DNA from: Chloroflexi bacterium RBG_16_64_32
GTDB taxonomy: Bacteria; Chloroflexota; Dehalococcoidia; SM23-28-2; RBG-16-64-32
Length of the DNA stretch: 24,560 nt
Assembly: GCA_001795235.1 (NCBI GenBank)
Contig: MGNZ01000136.1
Span: forward strand, 1 to 24,560
Reading direction: 5' to 3'
In this document: in pieces, positions 7,482-13,875 of the stretch
Numbering within the stretch: position 1 is the stretch's first letter
Layout of the letters: each line of letters starts with the position of its first letter
Made by a program: the position numbers and the translations under genes
The notes under the pieces: generated by a model
Databases searched by the model: none
What the model was told of the DNA's origin: nothing
What the model saw: the letters and a program-made list of their open reading frames with translations, nothing else

Positions 7482-7706
7482 TTAGCGCATTGGTCTAACC
7501 CCCAGCATCTGCGCAGACTGAGGCGGTTGGGTGTGCCGAGCATATGACCCGCTAAAGCTGTTATTGAAGTTGCGCCGAGCGCCGCACCGCTTACAGACTC
7601 CCTCACTCACGGGACCATCTTGCCTTCCGATCAACCAATGGTGCGAGTCGCCGACGAAGCTAAGGCCGTCGACGGGAGGGCCGCTACCACTGCGGCTGTC
7701 TACCAC
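7482..7706 (-). CDS. Small hypothetical protein with HHW...CxxC putative metal site
   Basis: SHHWLIGRQDGPVSEGVCKRCGARRNFNNS; GTG start overlaps the RRM stop; start and SD uncertain. Confidence 0.5.
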   Translation of the reverse strand: MVDSRSGSGPPVDGLSFVGDSHHWLIGRQDGPVSEGVCKRCGARRNFNNSFSGSYARHTQPPQSAQMLGVRPMR

Positions 7707-8011
7707 CGTTCGCGACCGTAGTTGGAACCGCCCGAGCGCGCACCCGATCTGTCTCCGTCGCGCCGTGCAGGACGCGCCTCTTCCACCCTGATCACTCGTT
7801 CTCCCAGCGTCTTGCCATTCAACTCAGCGATCGCCCGCCGCGTTTCGGCATCGGTGGACATCTCGACGAAGCCGAAGCCTTTGGAGCGACCGGAGTCCCT
7901 ATCGGTGATGACGGTCGCTGACTGGACCGTGCCTGTCTGCTGGAAGAACGTCTTAAGCTCTTCGTCCGCAGTGTCGTATGAGAGACCGCCTACGTAAAGT
8001 TTGTTGGCCAT
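7700..8011 (-). CDS. RRM (RNP-1) RNA-binding protein
   Basis: RNP2 KLYVGGLSY, RNP1 RSKGFGFVEM, Gly/Arg-rich tail; start at ATG 8011 with SD AGGAGG. Confidence 0.93.
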   Translation of the reverse strand: MANKLYVGGLSYDTADEELKTFFQQTGTVQSATVITDRDSGRSKGFGFVEMSTDAETRRAIAELNGKTLGERVIRVEEARPARRDGDRSGARSGGSNYGRERW

Positions 8012-8152
8012 TGAGTATTCCTCCTCTTGCCCGGCTTTCATCTAGCCGAACAATGTGTTGTCAGTTCTTTTGGATGTTCCTAGCCGGTCCTGCTGCGGGC
8101 ACCGCCAACTAAGGTGGCTCCTGAGGCTACTGTGCTTGGAGCGGGCGGGCGT

Positions 8153-8434
8153 CCGAAGCAGTTACAGCGCTAGGCTGAACGACCCTTGCGGGCTCAATAA
8201 CGACCTGTGGCCGCTTCTTGCGATCGGGACGATTGCGGCGTGGAGCTAGCGCGGGTGTGACCGATAGCCAGCACCCCCGCTATCACGACGCGCATCTTCG
8301 CGTGACCTCCAGCAGCTATGGCAGCGTTTAGGTTGGTCGTATCCTAGTTCACCAGATAGCCCTTGTTCTTCGGCGCTGAAGGTGAAGGACAGACTGCAGT
8401 CGCGACAGGTGAGATTCTTGTCCTGGTAGCTCAT
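8153..8434 (-). pseudogene. Zinc-ribbon (zf-trcl-like) plus degraded CxxC-x17-CxxC protein; open frame 8246..8434
   Basis: SD GAGGAG, MSYQDKNLTCRDC..FTFSAEEQ...GY..PKRCHSC; in-frame TAG at 8246-8248 followed by LHAAI and frameshifted PD...QV..EP.QGS...CNCF resembling the usual second domain. Confidence 0.55.
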
Positions 8435-8535
8435 GGGTGATCTCCTCTCTTCCAAAGTTGGATCAGTTCGGGTCACCACGAGCCCAGGTCGCTAGGCTAA
8501 AGCCTGAGGGGGCCTAAACGTTCGCCACTGGCAAG

Positions 8536-8546
8536 AGTATACCACA
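8536..8546 (-). promoter_or_regulatory. Extended -10 promoter (TGTG-G-TATACT) for the minus-strand small-gene cluster
   Basis: TGTGGTATACT ~100 nt upstream of the 8434 start; the same TGGTATACT core precedes rnpB. Confidence 0.55.
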
Positions 8547-8756
8547 GTTGTCCGCAAGCGGACTCGGTCATGGGGTTACGGCCGTCGGAGCCAAACCCAA
8601 GACGAGACCATTGCGGTCCTAGAGGAGTCCGCCAGCCTCGCCGAGCCACGAGCGCTCTCTCCGTTGTCTTGACGCCCCGCCGGCTGGTTCCGGGCATCCC
8701 GATGGCCTCCATCAGCAGCCTCGGCCTATCGCGGTCTGCAGCCTGCCGTGAAGCAG

Positions 8757-8797
8757 GGCCCGTCACCTCGCCTAGGCGCTCAGGGTGACGTCCCCCG
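8757..8797. repeat. Right copy of the imperfect direct repeat, overlapping the last codons and stop of birA
   Basis: GGCCCGTCACC-TCGCCTAG-GCGCTCAGGGTGACG-T-CCCCCG; identical blocks of 11, 15 and 6 nt shared with 6067-6105. Confidence 0.7.
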
Positions 8798-9551
8798 CCT
8801 CCACGGTGGCCAGGGAGCCATCGTCGCGCCGGATGAGGAGGCTTCCTTCGGCGTTGACATCCTCGGCCACGCCCTCCTCTACACGCTCGCCGAGGGTGGC
8901 GCGGACGCGGCGGCCCAGCGTCTCCAGCCGCGACCGCCAGGCGCGGAACGGGGCGTCGCCCTCGAGCGCCTCCGCGTAGCGCGACTCGAAGGCGTTAAGA
9001 AGCGCCGCCAGCACCTCCTCCCGCGAGCCCTCGCGGCCCAGCTCCCGGCGCACGCTGGTCGCGATGCCGGCGATCTCCGGCACCGCCTCCACGTCGAGGT
9101 TCACGTTCACCCCCATCCCCACCAGGGCGTACTTCACCGCTTCGCCTGCCAGGTCGGCCTCGATGATCACGCCCGAGATCTTGCGACCCCGGACGAGCAC
9201 ATCGTTGGGCCACTTGATTCGGCAGCTCAGCCCGGCAGCCGCCTCCAGCGCCTCCGCTACTGCCAGCGGCGCGACGATGCTCAGGAACCTGAGCCGACTG
9301 GCAGGCGGCCGCATGACCAGGGTGAGGTACAGGTTCTTTCCAGCCGGTGAGACCCATGGACGACCCAGACGGCCGCGTCCGCCGGTCTGCTCCTCGGCCA
9401 GCACGGCGGTGCCGCTGGGGGCGCCTTGCTCCGCCTCCGCGCGGGCGACGTCCTGGGTGGAGGCCGTGCGCGTGAGGTACAGGAGGTGTCTCCCCACGTA
9501 ACGAGTGGTCAGCCCTTCCTCGACCAGGGCCAGGTTCAGCCACAGAGCCAT
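8772..9551 (-). CDS. birA: Biotin--[acetyl-CoA-carboxylase] ligase, without HTH domain
   Basis: STQD, AEEQTGGRGRLGRPW.SP, KWPNDVL..GRKISGVIIE, GMGVNVN; no N-terminal HTH. Start placed at ATG 9551 because the longer frame runs through a terminator. Confidence 0.93.
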   Translation of the reverse strand: MALWLNLALVEEGLTTRYVGRHLLYLTRTASTQDVARAEAEQGAPSGTAVLAEEQTGGRGRLGRPWVSPAGKNLYLTLVMRPPASRLRFLSIVAPLAVAEALEAAAGLSCRIKWPNDVLVRGRKISGVIIEADLAGEAVKYALVGMGVNVNLDVEAVPEIAGIATSVRRELGREGSREEVLAALLNAFESRYAEALEGDAPFRAWRSRLETLGRRVRATLGERVEEGVAEDVNAEGSLLIRRDDGSLATVEAGDVTLSA

Positions 9552-9578
9552 CGCATTGAGGATAGCTGTAGAGGGCAA

Positions 9579-9610
9579 CAAAAAACCAGCCGGTTTCGGC
9601 TGGTTTTTTG
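9579..9610. terminator. Bidirectional intrinsic terminator
   Basis: CAAAAAACCAGCCG-GTTT-CGGCTGGTTTTTTG perfect inverted repeat with T tracts on both strands. Confidence 0.85.
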
Positions 9611-9648
9611 TGCTAGGCACGCAGACCTGTCCACGCGCCTTTCAGCTA

Positions 9649-9720
9649 TTACACCTGCACCTCAGAGAGGTGACGGTGCGAATGGACAGGCCTACGGCCA
9701 TCGCTAGGTTTATCGCCCAT
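9649..9720 (-). CDS. 23-aa small ORF (MGDKPSDGRRPVHSHRHLSEVQV) in a structured transcript
   Basis: Perfect SD AAAGGAGGTGA (9736-9726), 8 nt from GGAGG to ATG, double stop TAA TAG, own promoter and terminator. Confidence 0.5.
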   Translation of the reverse strand: MGDKPSDGRRPVHSHRHLSEVQV

Positions 9721-9746
9721 TCACATCACCTCCTTTCCTGCCCAGC

Positions 9747-9775
9747 ATCGTATCACGGGCGTCAAGGCCCTACAA
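9747..9775 (-). promoter_or_regulatory. Sigma70-type promoter for the sORF/structured RNA unit
   Basis: TTGTAG (9775-9770), 17-nt spacer, TACGAT (9752-9747). Confidence 0.5.
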
Positions 9776-9810
9776 GCCCGCGGGCGAAGATTGAAGGATA
9801 TAGGAAGCCG

Positions 9811-11325
9811 TTATCCGCGCGCCGGGAACAGCTCCCGCAGCACCCGCCGGGCCACCTCGCGGTCATCGCAATCGTAGGAGCCGCCGGCCAGGTGCACCTC
9901 GCGCTCGTGCCCCTTGCCGGCCAGAAGCACCACGTCCTCGTCCACCGCCATCGCCAGCGCCTGCGCGATCGCCTCGGGGCGGTCGGGCACCGGGGCAAAG
10001 TCGTGCCCCTCCTTCCTGCCGGCCTCGCGCAGCCCCCGTGCAATCTCAGCTATGATCGCGTCCCGGTCCTCCGAGTACGGGTTGTCGTCCGTCACGTACG
10101 TGTAGTCAGCCAGCTCGGCCGCAACCTGTCCCATCGCATATCGCCGCTGTTTGTCCCGCTCCCCTATGCACCCAAACACAGCGATGACGCGGCCGCGGCT
10201 GCTGGCCCGCAGCTCCTCCAGCACCCGCCGCAGCGACTCCGGCGCGTGGGCGAAATCGACGACGACGCTGAAGGGCTGGCCCTCGTCCACCCGCTCCATG
10301 CGGCCCGGCGCCCCCGGCCAGGACTCCAGCCCGCGCACGATGGTCGGCAGCTCCAGGCCCAAGGCCAATCCGGCCGCCGTGCCTGCGAGGGCGTTCGCGA
10401 CGTTGAACGCTCCCGGCCGGGCCAGACGGATGTCCGCCTCTCCAGCCGGTGTCCGCAACCGGCACCGCGTACCCCATCCCTCCGGCCGCACGTCCGTCCC
10501 CGATACGTCCGCCTCCGTGCCACGCCCGTAAGTAGCGATCCGGGCGGCCGTAAGCGACTGAAAGTAGCGGTGGGCGGGATCGTCGGCATTGAGCACCGCC
10601 GTCTTGACAACGCCTTTGTCCAGAGCGCCATCCAGCATCTCGAACAGGCGCCCCTTGGCTGCCAGGTACTCCTCCCGCGAAGGGTGAAAGTCCACGTGGT
10701 CGCTGCCCACGTTGGTCATTACCGCCAGATCGAACTCGCATCCGTCCAGCCGGTGCAGGGCCAGCCCGTGAGAGGTGGCCTCCAGCACAGCGTAGCGACA
10801 GCCCGCCTCCACCGTCTGCGCCAGCATACCCTGTACCTGGGGCGCCTCCGGTGTGGTGAAGCGATCGCTATCCGCCAGCGCTCGCCCGGCCGCACGATTC
10901 TCCGCTGTGCTCATCAGCCCCACGCGCTCGCCGGCCGACTCCAGGACGTGAGCGATGAGATGGCTTAGGCTCGTCTTGCCGTCGGTGCCCGTAACACCGA
11001 TGACGATGAGCTGGCGCGCGGGCCAGTCGAAGAGAGCGGCAGCAGCAGCGGCCAGCGCTGTGCGCGTGTCCGGCACGACCACGCCGGGCACGTCCAGCGC
11101 TGCCCAGTCGGTTCGACGGTCCGCCTGCACCAGAAGCGCTGCGGCGCCGGCGGCCACCGCCTGGCGGGCGAAATCGTGGCCGTCGACGCGGAATCCCGGC
11201 ACGGCCACGAACAGGGCCCCCGGCCGGACCCGGCGCGAGTCATACTCGATCGCGTCGAAGCCGATATCGCCGGAGCCGATAATCTTCGCCCCTGGAAGGT
11301 GAGCCGCTAGTTCCCTCAGAATCAT
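9811..11325 (-). CDS. murE: UDP-N-acetylmuramoyl-tripeptide synthetase (Mur ligase E)
   Basis: YDSRRV, DGHDF, GVTGTDGKTS P-loop, TTPEA, EATSHGL, NVGSDH.DFH, DFAH, GERD, DDNPYSED, AGKGHE. ATG at 11325 preferred. Confidence 0.93.
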   Translation of the reverse strand: MILRELAAHLPGAKIIGSGDIGFDAIEYDSRRVRPGALFVAVPGFRVDGHDFARQAVAAGAAALLVQADRRTDWAALDVPGVVVPDTRTALAAAAAALFDWPARQLIVIGVTGTDGKTSLSHLIAHVLESAGERVGLMSTAENRAAGRALADSDRFTTPEAPQVQGMLAQTVEAGCRYAVLEATSHGLALHRLDGCEFDLAVMTNVGSDHVDFHPSREEYLAAKGRLFEMLDGALDKGVVKTAVLNADDPAHRYFQSLTAARIATYGRGTEADVSGTDVRPEGWGTRCRLRTPAGEADIRLARPGAFNVANALAGTAAGLALGLELPTIVRGLESWPGAPGRMERVDEGQPFSVVVDFAHAPESLRRVLEELRASSRGRVIAVFGCIGERDKQRRYAMGQVAAELADYTYVTDDNPYSEDRDAIIAEIARGLREAGRKEGHDFAPVPDRPEAIAQALAMAVDEDVVLLAGKGHEREVHLAGGSYDCDDREVARRVLRELFPARG

Positions 11326-11338
11326 CGCCACAGATAAC

Positions 11339-11356
11339 AACGGCCTCGCGGCCGTT
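11339..11356 (-). terminator. Hairpin after rnpB (weak terminator or processing hairpin)
   Basis: AACGGCC-GCGA-GGCCGTT with GNRA loop on the minus strand, followed by GTTATCT (poor U tract). Confidence 0.4.
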
Positions 11357-11371
11357 GCGTTTCCCTAGAGC

Positions 11372-11753
11372 GGCCCAGCAGACCTGTAGGCCGAGTTCTG
11401 TAGTCCGCCAGGGCGGACCGGTGACCATCAATCTAGCCCCGCCGTTGCCAGCGGGGTCCAGCGGCCAACCCGAGAGCGTCGGGCCGGGCGCCCTTTCCCG
11501 CCCGTGGCGGGAGCCCTCCTATTTGGCCTTGCTCCGCGCGGGGTTTAGCCGGCCTCCGGCTCACACCGGAGCCGGTGGGCTCTTACCCCACCATTTCACC
11601 CTTACCCCGATTGCTCGAGGCGGTATGTTTCTGTGCCACTTTCCGTCGGGTCACCCCGCCTGGGCGTTACCCAGCGCGCTGCCCGGTGGAGCTCGGACCT
11701 TCCTCCCGTCCCCGCCCAGGGCGGGAACCGGCGGTCACCCGGTCTGCTGGACC
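11372..11753 (-). ncRNA. rnpB: RNase P RNA, bacterial class A
   Basis: Minus strand has GAGGAAGGUCCGAGCUC near the 5' end, GAAAGUG.CACAGAAA, GGGUGAAA.GGUGGGGUAAGAGCCCACC, GGCUAAACCCC...GGAGCAAGGCCAAAUAGG, and ACAGAACUCGGCCUAC near the 3' end; P1 helix CCAGCAGACC / GGUCUGCUGG. Confidence 0.97.
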
Positions 11754-12064: not shown

Positions 12065-12478
12065 CTAGCCGCGATCGAGCGCTTCGTTTGCCAGCTTGTC
12101 GGCGCGGCGGTTCCCGTCCCTCCGCACGTGCCGCACACTGAACGACGTGAACCGCCATTGCAGGTCTTTCACGCGTCCAAACAGACGCCGCAATGAGGGA
12201 TTACGTACCTTGTACCGCGAGTCGAGCTGGCGAACCACCAGCTCGGAGTCCATACGCAGCTCTACGTCGCGCGCACCCAGGGCCAGGGCCGCCTCTAGAC
12301 CGGCGATAGCAGCGCGATACTCCGCCTCGTTGTTCGTTGCCCGGCCAATGCGGCGGGACACGGTGTGGACCTCCTTCCCGGCCTCATCGAAGAGGGCAGC
12401 CCCGACCGAGGCGGGCCCGGGATTCCCGCGCGAGGCGCCGTCAACGTAGATGACCCACTTGGCGGCAGCCGCTCCCAC
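12065..12478 (-). CDS. rnhA: Ribonuclease HI (short RNase HI-like family)
   Basis: YVDGASRGNPGPA, TNNEAEY, DSELVVRQ, NRRADKLAN: D/E/D/D active site intact. Confidence 0.93.
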   Translation of the reverse strand: MGAAAAKWVIYVDGASRGNPGPASVGAALFDEAGKEVHTVSRRIGRATNNEAEYRAAIAGLEAALALGARDVELRMDSELVVRQLDSRYKVRNPSLRRLFGRVKDLQWRFTSFSVRHVRRDGNRRADKLANEALDRG

Positions 12479-13875
12479 TACAGCCTCAGGAAGACCTCGA
12501 CACCATCGTCGCGCACCACCACCCGCTCCAGGAGCTGGCGTAGCACCTCATAGCGCTCCGGGAACGTCAACTGCTCCCACTGCTCGCGGCACCGGGTCAA
12601 CGCATCCTGCTGCCGCTGCCGCCGTTCCGCCACCGAGGTCCGCTGCTGGGCCAGCCGCCGTCGCTCCGCGAGGGCTTCCTCGGTGGAGAGTTGCTCGCCG
12701 GCCACCTCAAGACCCAATGAACGAAGCCGTTCATCATTGATGCGACCGCTGGAGGCGGCATCCAGATATTGCTCGAGCCGCCGATCGAGCCGCCGCATCT
12801 TGTCTCGGAGCTTCTTCGTCTGTGCCTCGACGCGAGCCCGCTCATCATCCGCCACGGACCCCGGCATCTCCGCCTGGCCGCTCACAAGTGCGCTCTGTAC
12901 CTCGTCGTCCAGAGCCTCGGCGCGGCGGGTGTGGTAGTCACACAAGCTGCGGTTGGTGCGCGACTCGCACTGATAGTACCGGTAGAGTGCAGAGCGCATC
13001 TCCCCGTCGCTCCGTCTCTGCCAGCGCTGCCTGCGGGTGACGCCGATCATCTTGTTCCCGCAGTAGCCGCAGTGGGCCAAGCCGGAAAGCAAGAACCGAG
13101 ATGTCTCACGGACAACAGACTTGGGGCGACGCTGGTCGAGCTGCTCCTGCACGCGGCCGAAGTCCGCAGGCGAAATCAGGGGCGGATGGCTGGCCGGCAC
13201 TCTCACCCCGAAGCGACTGTAGGTGCCCACGTATGCCCGATTGCGCAGGATGTCCCGCACAGTCACCATGCTCCAGAGACCGCCGCGGCGGGTGTGCAGC
13301 GCTTCCTCGTTCAGGCGCCGGGCGATGCGCCGTATGCCCAAGCCATCCTTTATATACAGCCGGAAGATATATCGCACGACCGAACCCTCTTCCGGCACGA
13401 CCTGAAGCCGCCGCCGCGGTCCTACGCAGTACCCGTACGGCGGGCGGCCCAGAGCCTCACCCTTGACCGCCTTCCTGCGCATGGCGGCCCGCACCCGTTC
13501 TCCCAGGCGGCCGTTCTTGCGGGCTGCCGCCCACTGCGTCAGCAGCTCGGTCCCCGCGTCATCGCCATCGTCCATCGTCACCACGCTCGCACCCAAACTG
13601 GAAAGCTCGAAGTATCGCCGCGCCGACTCCGTCAGGTCGTCGCCCAACCCTGCCAGATCAGGCACGGCCACCAGCATAAACCCACGCTGGCGCTGATTGC
13701 GGAGGAACCCCACCAACTGCTGGAAGCCTACAACTTCATCAGGCATCTGAGTGGATTCGAGGAAGACGGCCGCCGCTTCATAGCCGTTGCGGCGACAGAA
13801 CTCCAGGAACGCCTTGCTCTGCTCCGCCAGCGGCATCTTGTCCTTCCGCTCCCTGAAGTAGCCTATCGCCCGCAT
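12478..13875 (-). CDS. Large serine recombinase-family protein (resolvase, recombinase, zinc ribbon, coiled coil), apparently catalytically inactive
   Basis: GRPPYGY, VRYIFRLY...IARRLN...W....VRDILRNRAYVG, HPPLIS, LLSGLAHCGYCGNKM, YYQC...C. N-terminal YFRER replaces YxRVS; AGLGD replaces DRLxR. Confidence 0.88.
   Translation of the reverse strand: MRAIGYFRERKDKMPLAEQSKAFLEFCRRNGYEAAAVFLESTQMPDEVVGFQQLVGFLRNQRQRGFMLVAVPDLAGLGDDLTESARRYFELSSLGASVVTMDDGDDAGTELLTQWAAARKNGRLGERVRAAMRRKAVKGEALGRPPYGYCVGPRRRLQVVPEEGSVVRYIFRLYIKDGLGIRRIARRLNEEALHTRRGGLWSMVTVRDILRNRAYVGTYSRFGVRVPASHPPLISPADFGRVQEQLDQRRPKSVVRETSRFLLSGLAHCGYCGNKMIGVTRRQRWQRRSDGEMRSALYRYYQCESRTNRSLCDYHTRRAEALDDEVQSALVSGQAEMPGSVADDERARVEAQTKKLRDKMRRLDRRLEQYLDAASSGRINDERLRSLGLEVAGEQLSTEEALAERRRLAQQRTSVAERRQRQQDALTRCREQWEQLTFPERYEVLRQLLERVVVRDDGVEVFLRL

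Follow-up and report, generated by a model that had tools for sequence, protein, structure and literature searches.

A conserved small RNA gene between murE and birA of a Dehalococcoidia genome, predicted to adopt two mutually exclusive folds and to carry a short reading frame with a drifting peptide

Introduction

Dual-function small RNAs such as SgrS/SgrT, RNAIII/hld and SR1/SR1P encode a peptide that is conserved and functional, and they also carry a base-pairing seed with known targets. The aapA3 mRNA of Helicobacter pylori contains hairpins within its ORF that arise while it is being transcribed and mask its ribosome-binding site (PMC6733600). These hairpins of the aapA3/IsoA3 type I toxin mRNA (PMC6733600) are the closest described mechanism to the one considered here, although the features that define a toxin are not found at our locus.

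We analyzed a 24,560-nt stretch of DNA from Chloroflexi bacterium RBG_16_64_32 (the window), in which a preliminary description had pointed to a hidden transcription unit upstream of birA. All of the features that it had read there, namely the promoter, ribosome-binding site, start-stop, ORF, stems, terminator and a TATCCT box, were found again where it had placed them, and their coordinates are collected in Table 1. The reading that we favor, to which we assign a probability of about 0.6, is that the unit is an independent small RNA of ~160 nt acting as a self-gating mini-messenger, in which the open frame and the RNA are selected and the peptide is not.

Table 1. Predicted features of the murE-birA region, by position in the window.
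Feature	Position	Strand	Remarks
murE	9811-11340	minus	Pfam-confirmed
-35 box TTGTAG	9775-9770	minus	17-nt spacer to the -10 box
Extended -10 box TG-n-TACGAT	9755-9747	minus	TACGAT 9752-9747, TG 9755-9754
Ribosome-binding stretch AAAGGAGGUGAU		minus	between promoter and ORF start
5' tail AGGAAAGGAGGUGAUGUGAAUGG	9739-9717	minus	14-nt ribosome-binding site, AUG-UGA and start codon
Ribosome-binding site core GGAGGUGAU	9733-9725	minus
AUG-UGA start-stop	9726-9721	minus	non-conserved
Start codon AUG	9720-9718	minus	8 nt after GGAGG
23-codon ORF with UAA	9720-9649	minus	in-frame UAG next at 9648-9646
P1 5' strand, open fold	9699-9680	minus	pairs with 9636-9616
Anti-tail	9687-9666	minus	closed fold: pairs with the tail; open fold: inner 5' strand of P1 and 5' strand of P2
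P2 hairpin GCACC..CACCUC / GAGGUG..GGUGU	9679-9651	minus
P3 mini-hairpin GCU-GAAA-GGC	9646-9637	minus	absent in some groups
P1 3' strand, open fold	9636-9616	minus	in the closed fold forms local hairpin 9640-9615
Intrinsic terminator	9609-9580	minus	A-tract, GC stem and U-tract
birA own start region	9564-9549	minus	TATCCT 9564-9559, 7 nt, ATG 9551-9549; without ribosome-binding site
birA, biotin-protein ligase gene	8772-9551	minus	Pfam-confirmed

Results

The 260-nt gap between murE and birA contains the complete RNA unit (9775-9580, minus strand). The element is present as a single copy in its own 1.67-Mb MAG, which rules out a repeat or mobile element. Directly upstream of murE we found a bacterial RNase P RNA of class A (11371-11750, minus strand, 269.8 bits). 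The distant homologous loci L090, L104 and L131 also have an RNase P RNA close by, and the gene order RNase P RNA, murE, RNA, birA is therefore old. Just past the RNase P RNA lies a large serine recombinase (12478-13875, minus strand) with Resolvase, Recombinase and Zn_ribbon_recom domains, which may be the mark of an integrated element. Downstream of birA, the region 7700-8479 (minus strand) encodes a 113-aa RNA-binding protein of the bacterial RRM_1 type and a small protein of 77 aa with a treble-clef zinc finger (zf_Tbcl), and an 89-aa ORF without a family (8497-8766) stands between birA and these two genes.

The preliminary description had made its claims depend on conservation and covariation in relatives, and both were found. 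With the 216-nt region as the BLAST query the element was detected in 31 of 41 related genomes, including 22 of the 24 same-family relatives and several other families of the same order, and the stems of both folds described below covary among them. Conservation in these relatives begins abruptly at CAGGAAAGG and extends to the terminator, and the DNA upstream varies freely. We also searched 185,579 species genomes with a pattern that was taken from the nearly invariant 5' stretch and fixed most of the tail. This returned 111 loci, ~100 of them genuine and nearly all from MAGs labelled Dehalococcoidia or Chloroflexota; the homologues are related by descent and counts over them overstate independent events. 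Single-linkage clustering into independent groups chained nearly all homologues into one cluster and was not used. Evenly drawn samples contained the element in 10 of 151 genomes of the class (covariance model) and in 4 of 401 genomes of the phylum (exact pattern), which indicates a family of certain Dehalococcoidia lineages and not of the whole phylum. The shape of the RNA body varies between groups and is a three-way junction, a two-helix stack or a long rod. One MAG chromosome (CP070630.1) contains the murE-RNA-birA segment twice, at ~0.22 Mb (L086) and ~1.52 Mb (L111). Its two RNA copies do not differ, and the repeat reflects either genuine duplication of the segment or an error of assembly or binning.

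Checked against Rfam, as the preliminary description had suggested, the element matches no family. At the gathering threshold of Rfam 15 the RNase P RNA alone passes in the whole window, a permissive search of 9450-9900 gave best scores of 14.6-19.6 bits against thresholds of 35-97, and no match overlaps the element in 15 diverse homologous loci. Pfam and NCBIfam searches with the peptide returned no match, and our literature search on a birA leader or the motif found nothing relevant. 6S RNA was considered and rejected as an anatomical misfit, the 5' tail being free or internally paired, with neither a stem closing the 5' and 3' ends nor a central bubble. A search with the 6S RNA model RF00013 found none in 21 same-order genomes (G000-G032, 12 of high quality), with only 5 of 14 control genomes positive, and this model may be too narrow for the lineage. 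Judged by its conservation, the element is a real and undescribed small RNA gene.

The promoter is conserved together with its spacing. In 63 of 74 homologues the end of a TAnnAT box lies exactly 7 nt ahead of AGGAAAGG, the extended TG is present in 67 of the same 74, and 63 of the 74 homologues having a recognizable -10 carry a TTGnnn box 16-19 nt upstream of it. The fixed 7-nt distance from the -10 to AGGAAAGG predicts a transcription start at 9740/9739, which we favor over the earlier proposal of 9745. The RNA most likely has its 5' end there and would start almost directly with the ribosome-binding site; we infer that it runs from ~9740 to 9580 on the minus strand, a predicted length of ~160 nt. 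A consensus promoter scan of both strands found no promoter, the actual boxes being under the scan threshold, and since it missed even the sense promoter it is uninformative on an antisense promoter. At the other end of the unit, a GC-rich hairpin follows right after the RNA body in 29 of 30 order-level relatives, the sequence of the remaining one (L009) stopping at the contig end. These hairpins are mostly followed by a U-run, which is weak in some, and both sides of the stem changed in 9 of 17 pairs. The terminator could be active in both directions. The conserved promoter and terminator bear out the hidden promoter-to-terminator unit of the preliminary description, and the unit, being independent of its neighbors, is predicted to stand alone in the manner of a dual-function small RNA, a possible reading that was raised earlier.

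The ribosome-binding site covers the full 3' tail of the 16S rRNA. The 16S genes of one same-family and one same-order relative end in GGAUCACCUCCUUUCU, and positions 9738-9725 are complementary to the last 14 nt of this 3' end, as read in these two relatives. The perfect Shine-Dalgarno sequence noted earlier is thus confirmed, and its match to the 16S rRNA is longer than had been recognized. The 12- to 14-mer of the site is unique in the 1.67-Mb genome. In the 30 order-level relatives, which BLAST found without a constraint on the tail, the tail is nearly invariant; this invariance is unbiased only for these 30, the ~100 pattern-collected homologues having been preselected on it. The 14-bp pairing with the 16S rRNA might hold ribosomes instead of promoting translation. 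Two features emphasized in the preliminary description, the AUG-UGA start-stop and the HSHRH motif of the peptide, are present here but do not define the family. The start-stop occurs in just 35 of 96 distinct homologues, as the stop-containing form of a variable triplet, and HSHRH is confined to one subgroup. The AUG-UGA also lies 2 nt from the GGAGG core, a spacing too short for a likely start. We considered a mimic of 16S helix 45, as GCCGUAGG is common to the RNA and the 16S 3' end, and judged the likeness coincidental since it occurs only in this subgroup.

The RNA is strongly structured. A 171-nt stretch has a minimum free energy of -82.1 kcal/mol compared with -55.7 +/- 4.2 kcal/mol for dinucleotide shuffles (z = -6.4; none of 200 reached the native value), which together with the covarying stems agrees with the earlier claim of a perfect ribosome-binding site and short ORF within a structured RNA. 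In the open fold the tail is free and the body forms a three-way junction, part of which is the 13-bp stem of 9695-9683 with 9633-9621. The closed fold joins 9733-9726 to 9673-9666 and also 9725-9713, where the AUG lies, to 9687-9677. Because the segment 9687-9666 is common to both folds, they exclude each other. The two exclusive folds proposed in the preliminary description are therefore retained with one enlargement: the alternative pairing that it noted between the ribosome-binding site and the body exists and extends over the start codon. G-U pairs make both folds strand-specific.

Compensatory changes were found in both folds. Among 30 relatives, 90.6% of alignment cells are paired in the open fold and 18 pairs changed on both sides; in P1 93-94% of cells are paired, and both sides changed in 6 of 19 pairs. 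In a covariance-model alignment of 66 sequences, which was fitted to the open fold, 91.8% of cells are paired compared with 32-44% for slid partners, with 30 of 33 pairs doubly changed, and in the outer helix of P1 both sides changed in 10 of 12 pairs. The inner stem of P2 is altered on both strands in L019 and L022, where its loop is 3 nt longer. L026-L031 represent a group without P3, and still other groups have a body in the form of a rod. RNAalifold chose the closed fold unprompted. The start-codon helix of this fold is 99% paired, and on the same open-fold-fitted alignment 90.4% of the closed-fold cells are paired versus 31-63% in slid controls, with 41 doubly changed cells versus 11.9 +/- 3.9 in shuffles. 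Only three positions of the tail vary, and they always covary with their partners. In 96 distinct homologues the first forms U-A or U-G in 49 and C-G in 47 with no mismatch, the second forms G-C in 90 and C-G in 2 and always matches its partner, and the third forms A-U in 39 and G-C in 55, again with no mismatch. In the RNA of the window, 9723:9679 and 9721:9681 are among the covarying pairs. The local hairpin of the closed fold (9640-9615) is 98% paired in 23 relatives with hardly any covariation. Kept by compensatory changes on this scale, both folds are in all likelihood under selection.

The two folds are also predicted to be similar in energy. Constrained folding of 95 homologues gave a mean difference, closed minus open, of +0.15 kcal/mol (median +0.5) on totals of roughly -40 to -130, these values being nearest-neighbor estimates with some 3' ends arbitrary, and the two values for the RNA of the window are -73.7 and -72.0 kcal/mol. 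This near-equal stability would make ribosome access switchable. In a growing transcript the closed fold is predicted at 70-115 nt, the switch at ~120 nt and the open fold from ~125 nt, when the 3' strand of P1 is present. Mutually exclusive helices over the ribosome-binding site are what the expression platform of a riboswitch has. The invariant unpaired nucleotides of a riboswitch-type aptamer core are absent, the junctions and internal loops being the most variable positions of the RNA.

We then asked what kind of selection the ORF shows. Each of the 96 distinct homologues has 15-25 codons, in most cases 22-24, from the AUG to the first stop, and the other frames run for 1-93 codons. The first 14 codons of the 96 contain no in-frame stop triplet, as opposed to 24 and 179 (203 together) in the other two frames. 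Indels are of 3 or 6 nt within the ORF and of any length beyond its stop, and the ORF keeps its length across RNA bodies of unequal length and varied shape. Most likely it is translated. These properties, together with an AUG that is invariant at ideal spacing in the BLAST-found relatives, argue against a non-coding RNA that is never productively translated, in which the tail would be a decoy or seed for the 16S tail or for CCUCC-containing RNAs (a 30S sponge or sensor) and the ORF a side effect. Such an RNA would fit the 14-nt complementarity, which spans the entire 16S tail and is longer than any other site in the genome, as well as a substitution pattern that is not protein-like and a very stable P1 that begins ~21 nt after the AUG. 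The openness of the ORF could in principle be a by-product of RNA constraints. Given the frame-preserving indels and the guarded length, we consider the untranslated decoy or sponge unlikely.

The peptide itself behaves differently from its frame. Entropy at codon positions 1, 2 and 3 is 0.43, 0.58 and 0.54, without codon periodicity and with the greatest variation at position 2. The variable codons are the unpaired positions of the RNA and undergo radical replacements (R/L/H/P at codon 16, S/F/N/Q/I at codon 19). Peptides are well conserved inside the closest group and unrelated in sequence between groups, and the common CACCUC motif is translated in different frames in different groups. This pattern, and the lack of any match in Pfam or NCBIfam, makes it quite doubtful that the locus is an ordinary small-protein gene in which a ~23-residue peptide is functional and the folds merely tune its synthesis, even though the ribosome-binding site is strong and followed by an AUG, frame and length are conserved, and the closest group shares a well-conserved peptide. 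We conclude that selection probably acts on the RNA, on the open frame and on the length of that frame, and not on the peptide. An open frame of fixed length with a drifting peptide suggests that the frame is kept for the traverse of a ribosome and not for its product. The median distance from the 3' end of the anti-tail to the start of the stop codon is 15 nt, which is about the trailing half of a ribosome footprint. With the stop at this distance, a terminating ribosome would have just crossed the anti-tail.

The position of the unit raises the question of its relation to birA, for which the preliminary description had offered two answers. One was a cis-acting leader or attenuator, in which translation of the ORF or a ligand would set read-through of the terminator into birA. 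That birA lies on the same strand 150-550 nt downstream of the RNA in most groups, distant ones included, is in its favor, but the remaining evidence is not. The terminator hairpin forms in the minimum-energy fold as well as in the open and closed ones, which leaves no terminator-antiterminator competition, and a pairing of the freed 3' strand of P1 with the terminator was sought and none was found. The ORF lacks the conserved regulatory codons of attenuators, His codons occurring in one or two groups only and in none of the others. There are no aptamer-like conserved junction nucleotides, and P3 is dispensable. Nor is the downstream gene co-oriented in all members: it is convergent in two groups, where it is a gltD-like gene or an ArsA gene. 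The complete 3.6-Mb genome G185 has its single RNA copy at 0.81 Mb, ~970 kb away from birA at 1.79 Mb, and the region upstream of that birA contains no such element. We therefore regard control of birA as improbable.

The other answer, a unit independent of a birA that is leaderless from TATCCT, agrees better with the data. birA possesses a separate -10-like box followed by an ATG of the leaderless type, and the arrangement TATCCT-7 nt-ATG is conserved in the two closest groups (A and B); in another group birA has TATAAT and a short leader. From this arrangement birA appears leaderless. The putative -35 region of birA would extend into the U-tract of the terminator ahead of it. In the complete genome with the distant birA, the stretch directly before birA (L145:1420-1476, plus strand) contains a short motif in repeated form, CTGAAAGACTGA / CTGACAGACTGA / CGACTGAAAGACT. 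The adjacency of murE, RNA and birA looks like inherited gene order more than a regulatory link, although its persistence next to birA in most groups counts against the stand-alone reading.

The last option of the preliminary description, a type I toxin mRNA kept untranslated by its own structure, is highly improbable, for although the predicted folding order resembles the ribosome-binding-site-sequestering hairpins of aapA3 (PMC6733600) and covariation backs a closed fold in which the mRNA hides its own ribosome-binding site, the peptides are hydrophilic and not the hydrophobic, membrane-active kind (GRAVY -1.27 here, mean -0.63 over 96, highest 11-residue window 1.3) and are not conserved, the locus is single-copy, syntenic and vertically inherited, and the G-U pairs make the folds strand-specific.

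Discussion

Starting from what the comparisons establish, namely the anatomy of the unit, its conservation, the covariation of both folds, the openness and length of the ORF and the independence from birA, we propose that the RNA works as a self-gating mini-messenger in the following way. Its first nucleotides would pair with the whole single-stranded 3' tail of the 16S rRNA, and the AUG behind them would open the 23-codon ORF. In the closed fold codons 12-19 of this ORF, the anti-tail, would mask the ribosome-binding site and the start codon. The open fold would instead form P1 and P2 from the anti-tail and sequence further downstream, thereby freeing the tail. To judge from the predicted folding order, the closed fold would form first during transcription, and the open fold would become competitive once the 3' strand of P1 has been synthesized. 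The regulated event in this proposal would be the loading and passage of a ribosome.

A more specific version, which we offer tentatively as possible though not probable, is that the RNA is a ribosome-operated switch that senses or buffers free ribosome capacity, its product again not being the peptide. The 14-nt tail would capture a free 30S subunit by the whole of its 3' tail, pulling the bistable RNA open. The ribosome would then unzip P1 and P2 and halt ~15 nt past the anti-tail, and the RNA could re-close behind it, such that one ribosome would be admitted at a time or the 3' strand would be transiently exposed. We know of no RNA of such a class, sensing ribosome capacity, that has been described in bacteria.

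Whichever form the mini-messenger reading takes, the locus gives a large and mostly uncultured bacterial class one more RNA gene, which is deeply conserved and absent from RNA catalogues. Two exclusive folds that are both backed by compensatory changes and predicted to be of equal energy are rare in natural RNAs. An ORF that stays open at a fixed length while its peptide drifts points to translation as a regulatory or mechanical step. Given the small size of the element and a ribosome-binding site complementary to the universal 16S tail, which is the same in E. coli, the switching could be tested directly in E. coli extracts.

Among known systems, the RNA resembles aapA3/IsoA3 in that a sequence internal to the ORF pairs with its own ribosome-binding site, and in that an early hairpin is predicted to yield later to another fold. 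The two differ in that our peptide is hydrophilic and unconserved and has no known antitoxin RNA, in that the start codon is sequestered here as well, and in that our RNA has two approximately isoenergetic folds where aapA3 has an inert mRNA, locked by 5'-3' pairing, that needs processing. With SgrS/SgrT, RNAIII/hld and SR1/SR1P it shares the plan of a stand-alone structured RNA that has its own promoter and terminator and a short ORF preceded by a ribosome-binding site. Unlike in these dual-function RNAs, the peptide drifts and the ORF fills most of the structured body. The trpL and hisL attenuators likewise have a short ORF and alternative RNA pairings followed by an intrinsic terminator. 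In contrast to them, the terminator here lies outside the alternative pairings, runs of regulatory codons are absent, and the downstream gene is not always co-oriented or near. Finally, in translational riboswitches and in the delayed folding of the MS2 maturation gene, exclusive helices gate a ribosome-binding site and start codon and the timing of folding relative to transcription matters, as is predicted for this RNA. It differs from both in being without a conserved ligand pocket, in regulating only its own tiny ORF and in carrying the competitor strand inside that ORF.
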